This document shows, piece after piece, positions 9,130 to 44,353 of a stretch of 64,000 nucleotides of DNA; position 1 is the stretch's first letter, and each line of letters opens with the position of its first letter. Origin of the DNA: Octopus vulgaris (Eukaryota); NCBI GenBank assembly GCA_951406725.2, contig OX597831.1, forward strand, positions 83,886,001 through 83,950,000, written 5' to 3'. The notes beneath the pieces are model-generated. The model made no database searches. It saw nothing but the letters and a program-made list of their open reading frames with translations, and was not told the origin of the DNA. A program made the position numbers and the translations under genes.

Positions 9130-9132
<3 letters not shown>

Positions 9133-10226
9133 ACAATTGAGGGTAAAATTAATTAAATAATCAATTTCACCAAGTGTTCAGTATGTAAAAGGACCATTTA
9201 AGGCGAATTCAAAATATTACATTATATAATTAGGGCTTAGTAAAATAAATTACTTTGCCACATACTGAACTTAGTAGAAATAGCAGCCAAAAAAAATTTT
9301 CTTAGCATTTCTACTACTTAAAGAAAATTTCTCTCAGATAATGTTTACTCTAGACAGCTCACGAAGGTTTGGGGGTAAATACAGAAAAATATCACAAGTA
9401 CATAGATCGTTTGAGTACGTCAACGTTTCAAGATTAGCCAAATAAATCAGCATTTCTTTCGTCAGCTCAAAATTTCTTAATTTGGATTTGGAAACACTAA
9501 AAGAAGGAACTTTACCTATCAGCGAACTTGTCGCTTCAGATGAACCACTCCAACTAAACAGTGTCAACAAATTCAAAATGCGCAGGCGTAAAATTCTGCA
9601 CTCCCCATTCCACCCACGTGGTCTATCTAGCAAACATTATATTTTAACCGCGAGAACCGAGGCAGTATGACCGAGAGAAATGAATTATAATATCAACAAT
9701 TGAGGGTAAAATTAATTAAATAATCAATTTCACCAAGTGTTCAGTATGTAAAAGGACCATTTAAGGCGAATTCAAAATATTACATTATATAATTAGGGCT
9801 TAGTAAAATAAATTACTTTGCCACATACTGAACTTAGTAGAAATAGCAGCCAAAAAAATTTTCTTAGCATTTCTACTACTTAAAGAAAATTTCTCTCAGA
9901 TAATGTTTACTCTAGACAGCTCACGAAGGTTTGGGGGTAAATACAGAAAAATATCACAAGTACATAGATCGTTTGAGTACGTCAACGTTTCAAGATTAGC
10001 CAAATAAATCAGCATTTCTTTCGTCAGCTCAAAATTTCTCGGTTCTCGCGGTTAAAATATAATGTTTGCTAGATAGACCACGTGGGTGGAATGGGGAGTG
10101 CAGAATTTTACGCCTGCGCATTTTGAATTTGTTGACACTGTTTAGTTGGAGTGGTTCATCTGAAGCGACAAGTTCGCTGATAGGTAAAGTTCCTTCTTTT
10201 TAGTGTTTCCAAATCCAAATTAAGAA
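9130..10226 (-). mobile_element. Retrozyme-like element: ~563-bp unit x1.6 plus inverted segment (10038-10226), 3' end in (TA)n
   Basis: Direct repeat starting 9131 and 9694; 10038-10226 is the reverse complement of ~9474-9661; one HHR per unit. Confidence 0.85.
9410..9471 (-). ncRNA. Type I hammerhead ribozyme (second copy 9972-10033)
   Basis: tttgag CTGACGA aaga..tctt GAA ACGT tg ACGT A ctcaaa: 6-bp stem I, canonical core, stem II, stem III, GUA site. Confidence 0.85.
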
Positions 10227-28261: not shown

Positions 28262-30175
28262 GGTCCACCGTTTCAACTTTGAACCAAGACCCCGCCGAGC
28301 CAACCTCACTCGGGCCGAATCCATCGCCCTTCGCCACCTCCGCCGTCGTGATGACATTGTCATCAAACCGGCGGACAAAGGCGGGGCGGTGGTAGTGTGG
28401 CGCGCGGACCTATACAGGGAGGAAGCGCTCAACCAGCTTCAAAATCCCCTCTTCTATCGCCTCCTCCCCTCCGATCCCACCTCCTCCTACCAACAGCGAG
28501 TGTCCTCCACCATCCACGACCTCATCTCCTCCTCCGCTCTCCCCCTCACCGCCACCAACCTCATCGTCCGCACACCCCGCACCTCCACCATCTACTTCCT
28601 TCCCAAGATCCATAAACCCTCTAACCCTGGCCGTCCCATAGTCTCTGCCTGTAATTGCCCCACTGAACTCATCTCCCTATACCTCGACCGCATCCTGTCC
28701 CCCTTAGTCGCAGCCCTCCCATCCCACATACACGACACCAACCACGCCCTCCGTCTCTTCAATTCCTTTTCCTTCCCTTCCAGCCCCTCACACCTCCTCT
28801 TCACCTTAGATGTAAAATCCCTGTACACAGTGATTCCCCACAATGACGGTCTCCTAGCCCTCCAACACTTCCTCGACCGTCGTCCCGACCCCACCCCCAG
28901 CACCCCCACCCTTCTCCGTTTGGCTGAGCTCGTCCTCACCCTCAATTGCTTCACGTTCGCCGGGGAAACGTACCAACAGGTGTCCGGGGTCGCGATGGGA
29001 ACTAGGATGGGCCCCAATTTCGCCAATCTCTTTCTTGGCTACATTGAGGCCCAAGTGTTCTCCCAGTTCTCTGGGCCGACCCCCGAACTATACGGTCGCT
29101 ATATCGACGACTGTGTAGGTGCCACCTCCCTTTCCCGGGAACTTCTCGGCCAATTCATCTCTTTCCTTTCCAACTTTCACCCCTCTCTTCAATTCACCTC
29201 CACCATCTCCAACACCTCTGTCAACTTCCTTGACATCTCTCTCCGCATCGATCACCCCTCCAGCTCTCTCACCACCACCGCCTTCTTTAAACCTACGGAT
29301 TCCCACCTCTATCTCAACTTCTCTTCCTCCCACCCCTTCCACACCAAACGAGCCATCCCCTACTCCCAGTTCCTCCGCCTCCGACGTTTGTGCAGCCGCG
29401 ACCAGGATTTCGAGACCCAATCTCAATACCTGGCCCGCATGTTCAGAACTCCGAGGTTACCCACCCACACTCCTCTCTGATGCCCTCACCCGCGCCCGTC
29501 GCATCGACCGCACTACCGCCTTGTCTCCTTCCCCCCGCCCACCCCCGCCCACCCCCCAACCGCACCCCCTTCCCCCTCCTTTTCCACCCCTCTACCCTAC
29601 CCCTTCGTCGCAAGATACTACGTGCCTTCCGTCGCCTCCAGCTTGATCCCACCACCCGCCCCATTTTCCCTAACCCACCCCTGTCCTCTTTCAAACGAGC
29701 CCGCAATCTGCGTGACCTCCTGGTCCACAGCACCCTCTCCCCTTCCCCCTCAGCCCCACACGGATCATTCCCTTGCTCTAGATCCCGCTGCAACACTTGC
29801 CCCTTCATCACCAACACCACCGCTGTCACCGGCTCCAACCTGCATACTGTACGCATTAGGCACTCTTTTACGTGCACCTCGTCTGGCCTTATTTACTGCA
29901 TTAAATGCAACCTATGCGGGATGCTGTATGTAGGTCAGACGGGACGCCGGTTGTCCGACCGTTTCACTGAACACTTGAGGGACGTTCGCCTACACTCTTT
30001 TTCTCCCGTCTCACGCCACTTCCGCTCGGCCGGCCATTCCCGAGATGACATCTCAGTGTTTGGTCTCGCCCCCCACAATGGTCGCCCACTTTCCAGGCTC
30101 CACTTGGAGCAACGCTACATCTTCACCCTACAAACTACCACCCCACACGGACTTAACACAGCCCCCTCCTCTTGA
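28262..30175 (+). pseudogene. PLE reverse transcriptase + GIY-YIG endonuclease, one frameshift near 29445
   Basis: [47 protein letters not shown]; Cys linker CSRSRCNTC; LIYCIKC..YVGQT..R..EH..LEQ..GLN. Confidence 0.93.
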
Positions 30176-33160
30176 GACCGTTTTTTTTTTTTTTTTTTTT
30201 TTCCGGACACACCACCCACACACACCCACCCACCTACCTCCCACACGCCTGTTCACACACACATACGTAGACCCATCTACGTACATACATTCACACATTT
30301 AATCACACACACTTACAGACACACATGCACATACACACACACATACATACATACACACACGCATACATACTTACACACACACACACACACACAGACATAC
30401 ATACACACATACACACACACATACATACGCACATACATACACACACACTCACACACACACACCGCACGTACATACTTCACACACACACACATGCACACAT
30501 ACATGTAGGCACATACATACATACATACCCACACATGCACACCCGTACACTGAATGCACACACACATACACCTTTTTGCATCCAGGCAGCCCCCCCTCTT
30601 TTCTGCTTTCCGGTTTTGGCTGATGGATCCTCGGTTCCCGCGTAGCGGGGCGTTCGAGGGCCTTTGCGCTCGCGCGCCTTGGCGCGCGCTGGGGGCTCGG
30701 TCGGCCCCTTTGGGCTTGCGTTGCACTGCTTGTGCGTTGTGTGCGTGAGCGCGCTTCGTGTGTGTGGGCTTGCTTCGGATGTGCGCTTGCGTATGTTTGC
30801 ATACATACCCACACACTCGCATGCATCCCTACCCACATACATCCACGCACACCTACTCACACACACACATACACACACACACATACCCGCACACACACAC
30901 ACATACATACATACACACACATACCCACTTCAGACATACACACACACAGACATACACCCATACACCCACACTCACACGCATACACACACACACATACACA
31001 CGCACACGTACACATACACACACACACACACCCACATACATACATTACACTTGTATACACACACTTACATTCATACACACACACACCTACACAGCCATAC
31101 CCTCACTCAGACACACACATCTACCTACACACACACAAACACACACTGACACACACCCATACATACATACATCTACACACTCACGCCTACACACATACAT
31201 ACACACATACATAAACACACACACATACACATACACACACATACGCACACACGCATATACTTATACACATGCACACACACACACATACATACATACACCC
31301 ATATACATACACACACACATACCTACATACTCCTATACGCACATACATACACACAGACATACACACATACACACTCACACAAACATACACACACACATAC
31401 TTACACACACACTCACCTGCACGCGCACACACATGCATGACAAACACTCATACACTCACACTCACATACGCACACACCAACATAAACACGCACACGCACA
31501 CACACACCTACACTCCCACACACATACACACGCACCTACATACACACACGCACGCATACACACATACATTACACACGTACACACACACCTACATACACAT
31601 GCATACACACACACACACAAACATGCACGGACACACCCAGACATACATACATACACCTATATACACACGCCTACACACCTACATACACACACATATACAC
31701 ACGCCCACACAGCTACATACACACACATACATACACACATACACGGACACACCCATACATACTTACATACATACACCTATACACACACGCCTACACACCT
31801 ACACACACACATGCACACACACACACATGTACGCACATACACACACATATACGCACACACATATATACCCACACACATGCACACACACACACATACGCAC
31901 ATACATGCACGCATGCACACGCGCACACCTACACGCATACACACACACACACGCACGTACACATACATACATACACACACGCATACATACACCCATACAC
32001 ATACATGCATCCTACACACACATACATACACACTCACACATACATACACACACACGCACTCACTCACACACCTGTATGTTCGCGCACACACATGCACATA
32101 CACACACTTCCCCACACCCACACGTACATACATACACACTCATACACACATACACACACACACACACACACGGACATACATCTATGCACACACATATATA
32201 CACACATACTCACATACATTCATCGGACACACTGCCACCCAGACATACACACAGACACACTCACACATCCACACGCACACATACGTACGCGCACACTCGC
32301 AGGCTCGCGCACACACGCGTTTGCGCCGGTTCGCGCACGCATGCGCCCCGCATGCACCTCGCCCTTGGACCCGACGAGACCTCCCGCCCGTTCCTGGGAT
32401 GCCGCTTGTCGTTGGGTTTTCCCACGCCCGTCTCCGCGGGACCACTCTTCCATCTTCCCCTCCGCTGGAGTCCTTTTCCTACCCCCCCCTTTTTTTCGTT
32501 ACACACACGCGCACACATATACACACATTGCTTAAACATATACATCACTCTTACACACATTCAATCTACTCGCCACTAATACTACCACGACACTGGACAC
32601 ACACACACACTACTACTCAACACACGCTGGCACGCTACATACGCCCCCACCCCTTCCCCTCCCTCCCTTCCTCCTTCCTCCCTTTTCTCACTACTGACCT
32701 TTGTCTGCTATGCTGCTGCTATGCTGACCACCGTCTCGCCCTACCTCACACGCCTACACACAGACGCACACACTAACACTTACATATATTTTTTGTTTTT
32801 TTACCTCGCCTCACACACACACATACACACACGCACACGCACACACTCACACATACACACACATCTGTTGCGTTACCAACCTTGTCTCCACTCTTTTGCC
32901 TTTAAAAACCCACTTTGCTCTTGTTATCGTAAACATCCGCCTTTCACCATGTGCTACTCCTAACACCAGCCGTTTTTTTCTCTATCTCCGTTGCCCGCTC
33001 CGGGATCTTTCTTTCCTCTCTCTTCCTTCTTTATGTTTCCGACGAAGAGCTCCGCTCGAAACGTCATACCTCCCTGCTTCCATTTCCTGAGCGCCTATTA
33101 ATAATAATACTGTAATTGTTCCCTTGTTGTTGTTTTTTTGTTTCCCGTTTGGATTAAAAT
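28262..33160 (+). mobile_element. 5'-truncated Penelope-like element (Neptune-type) with CA-rich 3' region and pLTR, inserted in (TA)n
   Basis: RT+GIY-YIG ORF; the terminal ~390 bp recurs at 49188-49575 (-); HHR-like motif at 33035-33069. Confidence 0.85.
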
Positions 33161-37452: not shown

Positions 37453-37479
<27 letters not shown>

Positions 37480-37483
<4 letters not shown>

Positions 37484-40400
37484 AAATAATTAAAGGGCGG
37501 GCAGCAGGCTGCCTCGCCGCATACCGGAGGAATTAGAAATGGCAGTCAAAGACTGTTTTTTCCATTTTCTATAAGTGGATTTTCCAAATACGACGAACCC
37601 TGCGGTTCACATACGCAAAAAACGGAGTAGCAAATAAACGAAACCAATCTCTTACCGTTAATGATGAACATGTTTCTAGATCACAAGCACGAAAATAGCT
37701 TGATTTCCTTTATCAACACCATATTCGATAGATTTAGCAAATGCCACAGGCCCTCACTTCTGACCAAGCGACATCAGATAGTGGGGGGAGGTGTGCATAT
37801 GTTAAAACTAAGTAATGACTGAGAACGTAAATTTTCCCTCCAAAAATTCTGCCGTGTGTGCCGCCTGGCCGATCGCAATGGAATAAGAAATCCACATGGT
37901 AATACAATAAAAATGGTAAATAATTTTTCAGTGGTTTTTCATATAACCAACAATTATTTACCGGCAAAATTCCGGTATGTAAATATGACAAATTCATCGT
38001 CAGGAACTTCTGGAAAGTTCAGTATATAGTGAAAATAATTAAAGGGCGGGCAGCAGGCTGCCTCGCCGCATACCGGAGGAATTAGAAATGGCAGTCAAAG
38101 ACTGTTTTTTCCATTTTCTATAAGTGGATTTTCCAAATACGACGAACCCTGCGGTTCACATACGCAAAAAACGGAGTAGCAAATAAACGAAACCAATCTC
38201 TTACCGTTAATGATGAACATGTTTCTAGATCACAAGCACGAAAATAGCTTGATTTCCTTTATCAACACCATATTCGATAGATTTAGCAAATGCCACAGGC
38301 CCTCACTTCTGACCAAGCGACATCAGATAGTGGGGGAGGTGTGCATATGTTAAAACTAAGTAATGACTGAGAACGTAAATTTTCCCTCCAAAAATTCTGC
38401 CGTGTGCGCCGCCTGGCCGATCGCAATGGAATAAGAAGTCCACATGGTAATACAATAAAATGGTAAATAATTTTTCAGTGGTTTTTCATATAACCAACAA
38501 TTATTTACCGGCAAAATTCCGGTATGTAAATATGACAAATTCATCGTCAGGAACTTCTGGAAAGTTCAGTATATAGTGAAAATAATTAAAGGGCGGGCAG
38601 CAGGCTGCCTCGCCGCATACCGGAGGAATTAGAAATGGCAGTCAAAGACTGTTTTTTCCATCTTCTATAAGTGGATTTTCCAAATACGACGAACCCTGCG
38701 GTTCACATACGCAAAAAACGGAGTAGCAAATAAACGAAACCAATCTCTTACCGTTAATGATGAACATGTTTCTAGATCACAAGCACGAAAATAGCTTGAT
38801 TTCCTTTATCAACACCATATTCGATAGATTTAGCAAATGCCACAGGCCCTCACTTCTGACCAAGCGACATCAGATAGTGGGGGGAGGTGTGCATATGTTA
38901 AAACTAAGTAATGACTGAGAACGTAAATTTTCCCTCCAAAAATTCTGCCGTGTGTGCCGCCTGGCCGATCGCAATGGAATAAGAAATCCACATGGTAATA
39001 CAATAAAAATGGTAAATAATTTTTCAGTGGTTTTTCATATAACCAACAATTATTTACCGGCAAAATTCCGGTATGTAAATATGACAAATTCATCGTCAGG
39101 AACTTCTGGAAAGTTCAGTATATAGTGAAAATAATTAAAGGGCGGGCAGCAGGCTGCCTCGCCGCATACCGGAGGAATTAGAAATGGCAGTCAAAGACTG
39201 TTTTTTCCATTTTCTATAAGTGGATTTTCCAAATACGACGAACCCTGCGGTTCACATACGCAAAAAACGGAGTAGCAAATAAACGAAACCAATCTCTTAC
39301 CGTTAATGATGAACATGTTTCTAGATCACAAGCACGAAAATAGCTTGATTTCCTTTATCAACACCATATTCGATAGATTTAGCAAATGCCACAGGCCCTC
39401 ACTTCTGACCAAGCGACATCAGATAGTGGGGGGAGGTGTGCATATGTTAAAACTAAGTAATGACTGAGAACGTAAATTTTCCCTCCAAAAATTCTGCCGT
39501 GTGTGCCGCCTGGCCGATCGCAATGGAATAAGAAGTCCACATGGTAATACAATAAAAATGGTAAATAATTTTTCAGTGGTTTTTCATATAACCAACAATT
39601 ATTTACCGGCAAAATTCCGGTATGTAACTATGACAAATTCATCGTCAGGAACTTCTGGAAAGTTCAGTATATAGTGAAAATAATTAAAGGGCGGGCAGCA
39701 GGCTGCCTCGCCGCATACCGGAGGAATTAGAAATGGCAGTCAAAGACTGTTTTTTCCATTTTCTATAAGTGGATTTTCCAAATACGACGAACCCTGCGGT
39801 TCACATACGCAAAAAACGGAGTAGCAAATAAACGAAACCAATCTCTTACCGTTAATGATGAACATGTTTCTAGATCACAAGCACGAAAATAGCTTGATTT
39901 CCTTTATCAACACCATATTCGATAGATTTAGCAAATGCCACAGGCCCTCACTTCTGACCAAGCGACATCAGATAGTGGGGGGAGGTGTGCATATGTTAAA
40001 ACTAAGTAATGACTGAGAACGTAAATTTTCCCTCCAAAAATTCTGCCGTGTGCGCCGCCTGGCCGATCGCAATGGAATAAGAAGTCCACATGGTAATACA
40101 ATAAAAATGGTAAATAATTTTTCAGTGGTTTTTCATATAACCAACAATTATTTACCGGCAAAATTCCGGTATGTAAATATGACAAATTCATCGTCAGGAA
40201 CTTCTGGAAAGTTCAGTATATAGTGAAAATAATTAAAGGGCGGGCAGCAGGCTGCCTCGCCGCATACCGGAGGAATTAGAAATGGCAGTCAAAGACTGTT
40301 TTTTCCATTTTCTATAAGTGGATTTTCCAAATACGACGAACCCTGCGGTTCACATACGCAAAAAACGGAGTAGCAAATAAGCGAAACCAATCTCTTACCG

Positions 40401-41502
40401 TTAATGATGAACATGTTTCTAGATCACAAGCACGAAAATAGCTTGATTTCCTTTATCAACACCATATTCGATAGATTTAGCAAATGCCACAGGCCCTCAC
40501 TTCTGACCAAGCGACATCAGATAGTGGGGGGAGGTGTGCATATGTTAAAACTAAGTAATGACTGAGAACGTAAATTTTCCCTCCAAAAATTCTGCCGTGT
40601 GCGCCGCCTGGCCGATCGCAATGGAATAAGAAGTCCACATGGTAATACAATAAAAGTGGTAAATAATTTTTCAGTGGTTTTTCATATAACCAACAATTAT
40701 TTACCGGCAAAATTCCGGTATGTAAATATGACAAATTCATCGTCAGGAACTTCTGGAAAGTTCAGTATATAGTGAAAATAAAGGGCGGGCAGCAGGCTGC
40801 CTCGCCGCATACCGGAGGAATTAGAAATGGCAGTCAAAGACTGTTTTTTCCATTTTCTATAAGTGGATTTTCCAAATACGACGAACCCTGCGGTTCACAT
40901 ACGCAAAAAACGGAGTAGCAAATAAACGAAACCAATCTCTTACCGTTAATGATGAACATGTTTCTAGATCACAAGCACGAAAATAGCTTGATTTCCTTTA
41001 TCAACACCATATTCGATAGATTTAGCAAATGCCACAGGCCCTCACTTCTGACCAAGCGACATCAGATAGTGGGGGGAGGTGTGCATATGTTAAAACTAAG
41101 TAATGACTGAGAACGTAAATTTTCCCTCCAAAAATTCTGCCGTGTGCGCCGCCTGGCCGATCGCAATGGAATAAGAAGTCCACATGGTAATACAATAAAA
41201 ATGGTAAATAATTTTTCAGTGGTTTTTCATATAACCAACAATTATTTACCGGCAAAATTCCGGTATGTAAATATGACAAATTCATCGTCAGGAACTTCTG
41301 GAAAGTTCAGTATATAGTGAAAATAATTAAAGGGCGGGCAGCAGGCTGCCTCGCCGCATACCATGTGGACTTCTTATTCCATTGCGATCGGCCAGGCGGC
41401 GCACACGGCAGAATTTTTGGAGGGAAAATTTACGTTCTCAGTCATTACTTAGTTTTAACATATGCACACCTCCCCCCACTATCTGATGTCGCTTGGTCAG
41501 AA
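37480..41502 (-). mobile_element. Retrozyme-like tandem array: 7 x ~549 bp + 45-bp partial + inverted segment 41362-41502, within (TA)n
   Basis: Unit starts 37480, 38029, 38576, 39125, 39674, 40223, 40772, 41317; near-identical units; one HHR variant per unit. Confidence 0.9.
37661..37722 (-). ncRNA. Type I hammerhead, U3-A8 core variant (also at 38210, 38757, 39306, 39855, 40404, 40949)
   Basis: atggtg TTGATAA a-GGA-aat-CAAGC..GCTTG-tga-TCT-a GAA ACATGT T catcat. Confidence 0.7.
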
Positions 41503-41503
41503 A

Positions 41504-41550
<47 letters not shown>

Positions 41551-41554
<4 letters not shown>

Positions 41555-41760
41555 ATAAAACGGTAAGATAACAAAAGAAAGAAAGAGACCTCAATATTAT
41601 GTAAATAGAGGAAATTTATCTATACAATATGTTACATTACTCGGTAGTCAAGATAAAACTCTGAGTTTCAGATGCCGAAGTGAAAATCCACAACACCATC
41701 TCTTCGGTTATCTGGCTCTGAAACTCAGAGTTTTATCTTGACTACCGAGTAATGTAACAT

Positions 41761-41765
<5 letters not shown>
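41551..41765 (-). mobile_element. Short PLE-type element with 5' inversion (41717-41765) and HHR-like motif 41651-41713 (terminus repeated at ~47119-47183)
   Basis: agataa CCGAAGA GATG..CATC-t GAA ACT cag AGT T ttatct; (TA)n on both sides. Confidence 0.7.
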
Positions 41766-41798
<33 letters not shown>

Positions 41799-41803
<5 letters not shown>

Positions 41804-42317: not shown

Positions 42318-44353
42318 GAAAAGAATATACATATACATATATATATATACATACATATACATATACATATACATATATATATATACATACATATACACAT
42401 ACATATACATATATATGCACATATACACACATATATACACATATAGATATTCATTTCTATTTCTTTAATTACCTGTGTATTTATTATGTTTGCAGGATCC
42501 ACTATTGTCATATGTTGTGGTGTGCGCTATTGCTCCATTCTAGTTTTCTATTCAGGCTAGGTTTATTTTCTATTATATGTGTAGCTTCTGTAATTTGTCT
42601 AATTGTTGCATCTGTTCTATGTGTTGACAATATCTTAATCTCTATGTTATTGATTGATCCCCCGTGTTCTTGTTCGGCGTGTTGGTACAGAATCGATGAG
42701 CTTTTACCTTCCTTGAGTTGTCTCCAATGTTCATTCACCCGCTCACCAATGCTTCTTGCAGTTTCCCCTACGTATGTTACTGTCTTGTTACTGCATCGTC
42801 CCTCTATACATCTTATACTATAGACCACATTTCTGGCTTTACAGTTCGTTTGTGGGCTAAATCTACATACAGTGCAATAGTTATCCGTACAGAGAGTTCT
42901 ACTAAAAGGATAGCTTCTACCAATTATAGATCTGATAGGGTTGCCTGGCTTTTCAACAACCTTAATTCTTAGTTTAAGTTTATCTAGGGTCCTTCTAAAG
43001 CGGTACGCTAGTTCACCTCCAGGGGTGGTGTCAACGAACATGACACTCTGGTATTTATGGCTATCATACCAAGAGTTGGCCTTCCCTATTTTCTTTTTTG
43101 TCCTTTCTATAGTGTTCCATGACTTGTTCCTATAGAGTGGGCAAATCCCATTCCTATCATTACATAATATATTATCAAATTTCTTCATGGCTCCTTTGTA
43201 TACTCTGATCCTTTCTTTATGGCTGTAACCTGAGAACTGCATGCGGTGAATGAAATACTGTATGTGTCTCTTTAATTCTGTAGGCTCGCACATGCGTGAC
43301 ACATTTCTCATTATTCTGATGAGGTCTGCCATCAAAATATTGAATTTGGCATTGCCCGCAATGGCTGTGTTCCGGTGGATCAGGTATTTTGAGGCCATAG
43401 GTTTTGCATAGTATGAATGAAGGATTTGGGTTTTATTTTTCACAATTTCTAGCCAGAGTTCAGTGTCTAGTACTGGTAGTCTATGGTTGGGGTGTTTAGT
43501 GGGGTAGTCTATTGTGACCTTAATACTCTGGTGGATGGAGTTAGCTATTTGCTGGATGCTCTCTATAGTATTAGTTTCTATTACTATATCAACAGTACCC
43601 TCTTGTGGGGGTGCCTTTACTACTATATTGATATCATCAACATAGCGAGAGTACATGTTTACGAGTATGGATTTCTGCAGTAGGCATTCTTTAAGCCTTC
43701 TGTCCCACCATACCATGAAGAGGTTGGCCACATCACCAGCGATACTAACACCGATGGCTGCCCCCACGTCCTGGGCATATATTTTATTATTAAATTTAAA
43801 TGTGTGGCCTTTTAGGGTAACTCTTATACTAGCTCCTAGTGCATGTGCGATCATTTTCTTTACCTGATGGACATTTGCGGGGCTCCGTATGGCTCTGGTC
43901 CATCCGCGCCATCTTTCTATATGTGTCTTCCTAGCCATAGAAGTAATTGTAGGCGGTCTACCTCTTAAACATCTACTGGGGCAGAAACTACTAAGATTAT
44001 GTTTATCTAAGTATTCACTATTATATGTCAGTCTAAGTAGGAGGCCCAGTTCTTCTGTGTCGACATTACAGAACTCCAACTGGCTCTCGTTGATCATCTC
44101 CACGCACTTCTCCACTGCAAAATCTACGTCAATCGATGGGTATAGGGATACCACATCCATGCTACCTACTATACATCCTGTCAAGTCACAAGTTTTGTTA
44201 CAGTCACTGATCCTGCTTAGGAGAACTTTGGCCGAAATAAGATTAAGATTAATGTAAAAAATAAATATCACTGAAGCAAAATAACACCAAATATATAGTG
44301 CGTGTGTTTTTATTGGCTAAACTGGCAATATGACCATTCCGAAATATAACAAT
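41799..44353 (-). mobile_element. 5'-truncated Penelope-like element with inverted pLTR segment (44221-44353)
   Basis: 44221-44353 is the reverse complement of ~41797-41929; 3' end in (TA)n; solo pLTR at ~56628-56855. Confidence 0.9.
42508..44220 (-). CDS. PLE RT + GIY-YIG endonuclease, uninterrupted but 5'-truncated
   Basis: SMDVVSLYPSI, GAAIGVSIAGDVANLFM, RYVDDI, LPVLD, Cys linker, VVYSIRC..YVGETAR..R..EH..TEA..LN. The first ~17 aa of the listed ORF come from the inverted pLTR. Confidence 0.92.
   Translation of the reverse strand, partial: LSRISDCNKTCDLTGCIVGSMDVVSLYPSIDVDFAVEKCVEMINESQLEFCNVDTEELGLLLRLTYNSEYLDKHNLSSFCPSRCLRGRPPTITSMARKTHIERWRGWTRAIRSPANVHQVKKMIAHALGASIRVTLKGHTFKFNNKIYAQDVGAAIGVSIAGDVANLFMVWWDRRLKECLLQKSILVNMYSRYVDDINIVVKAPPQEGTVDIVIETNTIESIQQIANSIHQSIKVTIDYPTKHPNHRLPVLDTELWLEIVKNKTQILHSYYAKPMASKYLIHRNTAIAGNAKFNILMADLIRIMRNVSRMCEPTELKRHIQYFIHRMQFSGYSHKERIRVYKGAMKKFDNILCNDRNGICPLYRNKSWNTIERTKKKIGKANSWYDSHKYQSVMFVDTTPGGELAYRFRRTLDKLKLRIKVVEKPGNPIRSIIGRSYPFSRTLCTDNYCTVCRFSPQTNCKARNVVYSIRCIEGRCSNKTVTYVGETARSIGERVNEHWRQLKEGKSSSILYQHAEQEHGGSINNIEIKILSTHRTDATIRQITEATHIIENKPSLNRKLEWSNSAHHNI

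Follow-up and report, generated by a model that had tools for sequence, protein, structure and literature searches.

A probable hammerhead-bearing retrozyme family in Octopus vulgaris, whose relatives in the genome appear to record stepwise change of a key ribozyme base pair

Introduction

Metazoan non-LTR retrozymes are non-coding tandem units, each with one type I hammerhead, a GC content under 50% and no tRNA-derived part. They are dispersed as monomers to multimers in genomes that also contain Penelope-like elements (PLEs), which were proposed as their helpers (PMC7229834; 10.64898/2026.07.22.740005). Their units measured 170-400 nt in Cervera and de la Pena 2020 (PMC7229834) and 51-972 bp in Li et al. 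2026 (10.64898/2026.07.22.740005). In Xenopus, 24/57 retrozyme families matched TEs (21/22 of them PLEs), and 1/9 dimers was cleaved in a published dimer test (10.64898/2026.07.22.740005). In the accessible text of this literature, the role of the hammerheads of PLEs and retrozymes is described as unclear and their route of mobilisation as hypothetical.

The tertiary Watson-Crick pair C3-G8 of the hammerhead core is established (PMC3884650). Its U3-A8 counterpart was described in nature before the array studied here: natural U3-A8 was called active in vitro (PMC3088659), and about 1,300 motifs linked to a PLE of schistosomes have this pair (PMC4209133). In the accessible account of this element, Cercyon of Schistosoma mansoni, the pLTR hammerhead combines the U3-A8 core with a long stem II, an extra nucleotide after A9 and palindromic positions 15.2-16.2, with predicted dimer action and predicted low activity (PMC4209133). 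PLE insertions are typically truncated or partly tandem, may adjoin an inverted copy, carry a tail at one of their ends and favour microsatellites. MRC1 of Chlamydomonas, Neptune and Naiad form multicopy head-to-tail insertions of this kind, with tails of 30-40 bp, and the non-autonomous PLEs of the same study generally share their 3' ends with an autonomous family (Craig et al. 2021, PMC8557442; both as given in its accessible text).

Here we analyse a seven-unit array in Octopus vulgaris. It lies in a stretch of 64,000 nucleotides, hereafter the window (GCA_951406725.2, contig OX597831.1, positions 83,886,001 to 83,950,000), and was compared with its relatives in the 2.8-Gb assembly.

Results

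The array has (TA)n on both sides and contains seven units, a 46-bp part of an eighth and an inverted piece (Table 1); its RNA sense is the minus strand. The units are 99.3-99.8% identical to unit 1, which agrees with the near-identical copies between (TA)n tracts described in the first-pass annotation. The TATATA that it had placed at the unit junction is also present. The inverted piece was the one reported, with a length of 144 bp (including a 4-bp overlap) instead of 141 bp. The alignment of the units revealed 13 variable columns, two of them common to several units (T at unit position 380 in units 1, 3 and 4; A at 411 in units 1 and 3), exactly as these variants had been said to assort, and the others private. 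Two of the differences of unit 2 are homopolymer deletions.

The unit has a GC content of 0.40. All stop-free frames of the array locus are shorter than 150 aa, and the array did not match PLE proteins. A tRNA search of the unit found none, and the identity of a tRNA-derived SINE was dropped on this ground. By sequence criteria the element is a metazoan non-LTR retrozyme, in line with its first description as retrozyme-like: its tandem units each carry a type I hammerhead, are non-coding and are dispersed. The 549-nt unit exceeds the range of Cervera and de la Pena 2020 and falls within that of Li et al. 2026. The array, known here from DNA alone, differs from the metazoan retrozymes in its non-canonical core, its strict (TA)n targeting and its two fixed ends.

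Table 1. Coordinates of the array, of its conserved elements and of the candidate helper (window positions unless a locus is named).
Feature	Position	Strand	Remarks
Left (TA)n target tract	37454..37479	.	From sequence; dispersed copies with same flank
Unit 1, 549 bp	37480..38028	-	Fixed end 1 of family at 37480
Units 2-7	38029..41316	-	547, 549, 549, 549, 549, 545 bp; starts 38029, 38576, 39125, 39674, 40223, 40772
127-bp tail, unit 423-549	37902..38028	-	Ends in TATATA junction; fixed end 2 of dispersed copies at 423
46 bp of eighth unit	41317..41362	-	Truncation point
Inverted piece of unit 279-422, 144 bp	41359..41502	+	Joined via 4-bp microhomology
Right (TA)n tract	41506..41552	.	
Type I hammerhead, U3-A8 core	37661..37722	-	Predicted cut between 37667 and 37666 (unit 188|187)
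Hammerhead in units 2-7	38210-38271, 38757-38818, 39306-39367, 39855-39916, 40404-40465, 40949-41010	-	
5' arm of 9-bp long-range helix across unit junction	38069..38077	-	Conserved terminal block of superfamily
3' arm of 9-bp helix	37971..37979	-	In tail of neighbouring unit; arms covary
Apparently intact two-ORF Neptune-type PLE	L129:1245-3587 and L130		Contigs C16, C5; at least 16 places

The hammerhead proposed on the minus strand was recovered in all its details in 7/7 units: a 6-bp stem I, UUGAUAA, the A.A mismatch, GAAA, the palindromic ACAUGU and a GUU site. U4 G5 A6, A9, G12 A13 A14, A15.1-U16.1 and H17 (= U) are likewise present in every unit, and positions 3 and 8 form a Watson-Crick U3-A8 pair. 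In stem II, the A.A mismatch at the core is followed by G.U, and the closing pair G10.1-C11.1 is absent; some relatives have a G-C after the mismatch. Stem III has 2 bp and is palindromic. The ACAUGU palindrome was found in 50 of the 85 rows extracted from relatives, and most of the others carry different palindromes or near-palindromes. The features given above for Cercyon recur in the octopus motif, which differs from it in its 6-bp stem I, in having one more nucleotide on each side of stem II and in having no ORF.

Two lines of evidence support the hammerhead fold. The first is the covariation of stem I, whose pairing averaged 5.47/6 over 32 distinct stem types (one mis-parsed row included), compared with 4.11 in shuffles (maximum 4.69); the search patterns made no requirement of pairing. 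In 12 sister ribozymes with a canonical core, 96/96 cells were paired (17-47% in slid controls) and two-sided changes occurred in 6/8 pairs, namely all six of stem I. The second is a covariance model trained on these 12 sisters, none of which belongs to the 549-bp family. The model gave the seven array motifs 38.5 bits each (E about 2e-8, a rough calibration); elsewhere in the window, it scored two sister copies at 44.3 bits and a sole further match at 14.1 bits. A scan with Rfam returned no hammerhead match in the array, which is uninformative because the canonical-core sister used as a control was also missed.

From the irregular stem II, the 2-bp palindromic stem III and the GUU site, we infer that cleavage of the array RNA would be slow and dimer-dependent. 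The A.A mismatch, the G.U as first pair of stem II, the GUU site and the short stem III should all lower activity. When two copies were co-folded the palindromes did pair, but in an extended register, which would be in competition with the active one.

To follow the core pair among relatives, we used a pattern allowing all four states of positions 3 and 8, which gave 115 matches (control, 0). Among the 100 matches listed, counted by eye, 44 were U-A, 30 U.G, 26 C-G and none C.A. The 85 extracted rows comprised 30 U-A (one mis-parsed and really C-G), 17 U.G, 22 C-G and 16 C-G with U4C, and C3.A8 was absent from all 85 under a pattern that permitted it. Within these rows, relatives carry C3-G8, U3.G8 or U3-A8 and never C3.A8. 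The earlier proposal that U3-A8 is the compensatory form is supported.

A tree was built from 72 of the 85 rows (the mis-parsed row and twelve distant ones were left out) with positions 3, 4 and 8 masked. The young U-A clade that includes the window (17 rows, support 100/99) arises inside a U.G grade, and so does the U4C clade (16 rows, support 100/98). Forcing the U-A clade together with the C-G rows and outgroups to the exclusion of U.G was rejected (p-AU 4e-5), for a group that had been named after inspection of an earlier tree. The U3.G8 grade is multi-copy. A second lineage also has C-G, U.G and U-A forms; by eye, 53 of the 100 matches listed for it were family members, none of them C.A. 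The number of independent changes of the 3-8 pair is small. Since masking moves the root of the 549-bp family into the U.G grade, the C3-G8 copies inside this family may be reversions rather than ancestors, and we claim no direction; some single U-A copies may result from CpG decay after insertion. The relatives in this genome appear to record stepwise change of a key ribozyme base pair. The accessible Cercyon account gives two end states, whereas the octopus has U3.G8 intermediates (PMC4209133). We found no description of such intermediate lineages, or of this family, in the literature searched (supplements and subscription papers apart).

The unit is not confined to this locus, which would have been one of the refuting conditions named in the first-pass annotation: it is dispersed over many chromosomes, with 106 matches from 40 of 1,004 candidates scored, and full-length dispersed copies are 87-99% identical to it. 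A 24-base motif of the young subfamily had 46 matches at 32 loci (counted by eye; control, 0), three of which are older copies. A looser terminal motif defines a superfamily with 4,480 matches (control, 0), units of about 550-594 bp and other arrays of 3-5 copies, among them a sister array with a 594-bp period and five motif copies.

We read the insertion ends at 28 of the 32 young loci, picked regardless of length, with the window and the three older copies left out. At 27/28, unit end 1 and/or end 423 lay directly on a TA-rich flank (14 with end 1 only, 7 with end 423 only and 6 with both). The search for dispersed copies with the same end suggested in the first-pass annotation was therefore successful at many loci, and priming at (TA)n, its proposed mechanism, is supported by the fixed ends against these tracts. 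A shared end does exist, but not a single one, as there are two (unit positions 1 and 423). Both adjoin TA-like bases of the unit. The spacing recurs in sister families, where the motif lies either roughly 30-50 or roughly 140-175 bases from (TA)n. The opposite ends are ragged, partial tandems and inversions were seen among the dispersed copies, and 12/28 young loci (read by eye) had an inverted segment. Target-site duplications are unreadable at family insertions, the flanks being (TA)n. In one copy (L206:1343-1872), priming took place at yet a third position, unit 242, which is TA-like and falls within hammerhead stem I; this supports internal priming by microhomology.

The ragged ends also bear on the use of the ribozyme. 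Among 40 breakpoints (the two of the window included, a noisy end of L213 excluded and an end of L208 set at 185, not 195), no excess was found at the predicted cut site (3/40 versus 1.2 expected; p 0.11). Nineteen of the 40 lay beyond unit 192, so that templates would often have been uncut multimers, circles or religated molecules. The lack of a pile-up at the cut site would fit an element whose ribozyme is nearly vestigial and which moves as uncut read-through multimeric RNA, without a circle. The irregular stem II and the spread of multi-copy subfamilies whose tertiary pair is the U3.G8 wobble (30 of the 100 matches listed) point the same way. On the other side, stem I still compensates within the 549-bp family, C3.A8 was never seen (0/85) and Watson-Crick clades emerge from the U3.G8 grade, which together argue for ongoing selection on the fold. 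We consider a nearly vestigial ribozyme unlikely.

A second conserved structure is a 9-bp helix across the unit junction (Table 1). Co-change of its arms is seen both in the young clade (13 rows) and in one sister family (3 rows); related rows are not independent events. Pairing extends over 8 or 9 positions, with no mismatch or an end-only one, in 69/73 rows, a count that the pattern used for the 3' arm partly favours. The predicted MFE structure of a circle contains the helix and leaves both priming sites unpaired, on either side of it. Relative to 40 shuffles, the circle did not fold better than its antisense (z -3.9 versus -5.0).

The origin of the seven units can be approached through their variants. 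G126 is present in 7/7 array units compared with 1/23 dispersed young copies covering the position, and T380 (a CpG-type change) and A411 are absent from the aligned dispersed young copies, which points to one template and later exchange at the DNA level. Repeated copying of one template followed by such exchange is thus the simplest reading of the seven-mer from its variants. The earlier argument from the assorting SNPs had offered a multimeric template or later conversion; the second part is retained, and a mixed multimeric template is disfavoured by the same three variants. The array is the only one of the 32 young loci with more than two tandem motif copies, and SNPs common to non-adjacent units need DNA-level exchange, as would be expected if an insertion of one or two units had later grown to seven by unequal exchange. 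G126 could also have arisen in one genomic unit, and the homopolymer deletions of unit 2 would fit a copy number that is in part an artefact of assembly. Against such growth, sister families have arrays of 3 to 5 copies with sharp ends in (TA)n, and at L213 two private variants occur in every segment, as expected from recopying of one template; as to an artefact, the units carry private substitutions, which speaks against the assembler having simply collapsed or expanded them. We doubt both later growth and artefact, and favour repeated copying.

PLEs were considered as the source of the reverse transcriptase. An open frame of 781 aa, which holds 16/148 GIY-YIG matches, encodes RT and GIY-YIG domains with a C-x4-C-x2-C (Neptune-type) linker. 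The element has an upstream ORF, a minimal U3-A8 hammerhead and a (TA)n end, and from its sequence was likely active recently. The end of this PLE does not resemble the unit. No PLE ORF was continuous with the family terminal end in three sets of family loci (0/30, 0/40 and 0/13); in 4 of the 40, PLE pieces were present, each beyond a TA tract, and 2 of the 43 PLE loci carried sister-family DNA, separated by (TA)n. No shared end was thus found in 83 family loci or in 43 PLE loci, which represent few of the 4,480 motif matches and 6,136 GIY-YIG candidates. Among the loci sampled, no link to a PLE pLTR was found, in contrast to the Xenopus families, and no 3' end in common with an autonomous family, as is general for the non-autonomous PLEs of PMC8557442.

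With no shared end found in this sample, the helper, most likely a PLE and not named in the first-pass annotation, is inferred from the anatomy of the insertions. The family has the 5' truncation, partial tandems, adjacent inverted copies and one-end tail of PLEs, with a tail of 127 bp compared with the 30-40 bp in PMC8557442, and its TA-rich flanks match their microsatellite bias. By this analogy, the apparently intact Neptune-type PLEs, which likewise have U3-A8 and end in (TA)n, are likely the helper. A LINE-type RT as helper, or a DNA rolling-circle repeat, could account for the missing shared end, and the loci often contain LINE-like RT fragments; the insertions, however, have no poly(A), no fixed single 3' end and no tRNA-derived head, and their ends, two-sided and with a tail, their inverted truncated copies, their bias for (TA)n and the type I hammerhead form the pattern of PLEs. 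We regard these alternatives as very unlikely compared with a PLE helper.

Other elements of these kinds were seen in the window and the genome. At 9132-10140 (minus strand), two tandem sister-retrozyme copies with a period of about 563 bp end in (TA)n; they have canonical C3-G8 hammerheads (9406-9475 and 9968-10037) and the same terminal block and helix. The right (TA)n tract of the array is shared with a small unrelated insertion at 41553-41764 (minus strand), bounded by (TA)n at 41765-41799, which has an inverted copy of its own end and a hammerhead-shaped motif with a U4C core and a 5-bp stem I at about 41652-41712. Two decayed PLE ORFs are present. One, at 42544-43827 (minus strand), retains RT and GIY-YIG pieces 26-28% identical to the other PLEs of the genome; the other, at 28302-30037 (plus strand), is followed by a CA-rich tract to about 33200 and, near 33080, by a minimal hammerhead-shaped motif with a U4C core. 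At L195:2690-3140, the end of the 781-aa PLE is followed by (TA)25 and an inverted pair of sister-family sequence, two elements within one (TA)n tract as in the window. The 2,969 matches to a canonical hammerhead pattern (control, 523) are dominated by an unrelated, very abundant family (L032, L038, L042 and L060); two of its copies lie downstream of PLE protein remnants, and the inspected copies are outside (TA)n. PLE-like proteins 43-50% identical to the 781-aa frame are named from assemblies of bacterial symbionts of molluscs and are probably host DNA in those assemblies.

Discussion

We interpret the array as a young insertion of a non-autonomous, hammerhead-bearing retroelement (a non-LTR retrozyme) that depends for its movement on a Penelope-like RT/GIY-YIG protein acting in trans, and give this reading a probability of about 0.7. 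Read-through transcription of tandem copies would produce a multimeric minus-strand RNA, some of which the hammerhead would cut, probably slowly, into 549-nt monomers. It would act as a dimer, given the 2-bp palindromic stem III, and the monomers may be ligated into circles. The PLE endonuclease would nick (TA)n, the left tract being where first-strand cDNA would be primed, and the nicked strand would anneal to a single-stranded AU-rich site of the RNA, at unit 549-544 or about 423. The RT would then pass through the cut site for one or several rounds; in this array it would have copied a single template for about 7.1 units. The inverted piece would owe its origin to a second primer, supplied by the other strand, and the two assorting SNPs would have arisen and spread afterwards in DNA.

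A more specific model, which we put forward tentatively and at somewhat less than even odds, joins the core series to this route. In at least two independent lineages, C3-G8 and U3-A8 would have interchanged only via a U3.G8 wobble, active enough to sustain the transposition of whole subfamilies; the RNA would be a circle primed internally by (TA)n at either of two loops held open by the conserved junction-spanning helix.

The element class, the U3-A8 core and the link to PLEs are all published, and the array alone is therefore ordinary. The octopus family offers a test system, with young near-identical copies, readable junctions, two internal priming sites and a covarying helix. A single genome holds both an intact candidate helper and cores in a graded series (C-G, U.G, U-A and C-G with U4C), which allows direct comparison of cleavage rate, circle formation and trans-mobilisation. 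If the model is true, these relatives would form a natural ribozyme series to test how weak cleavage sets the balance of monomers, circles and multimers during PLE-type retrotransposition.
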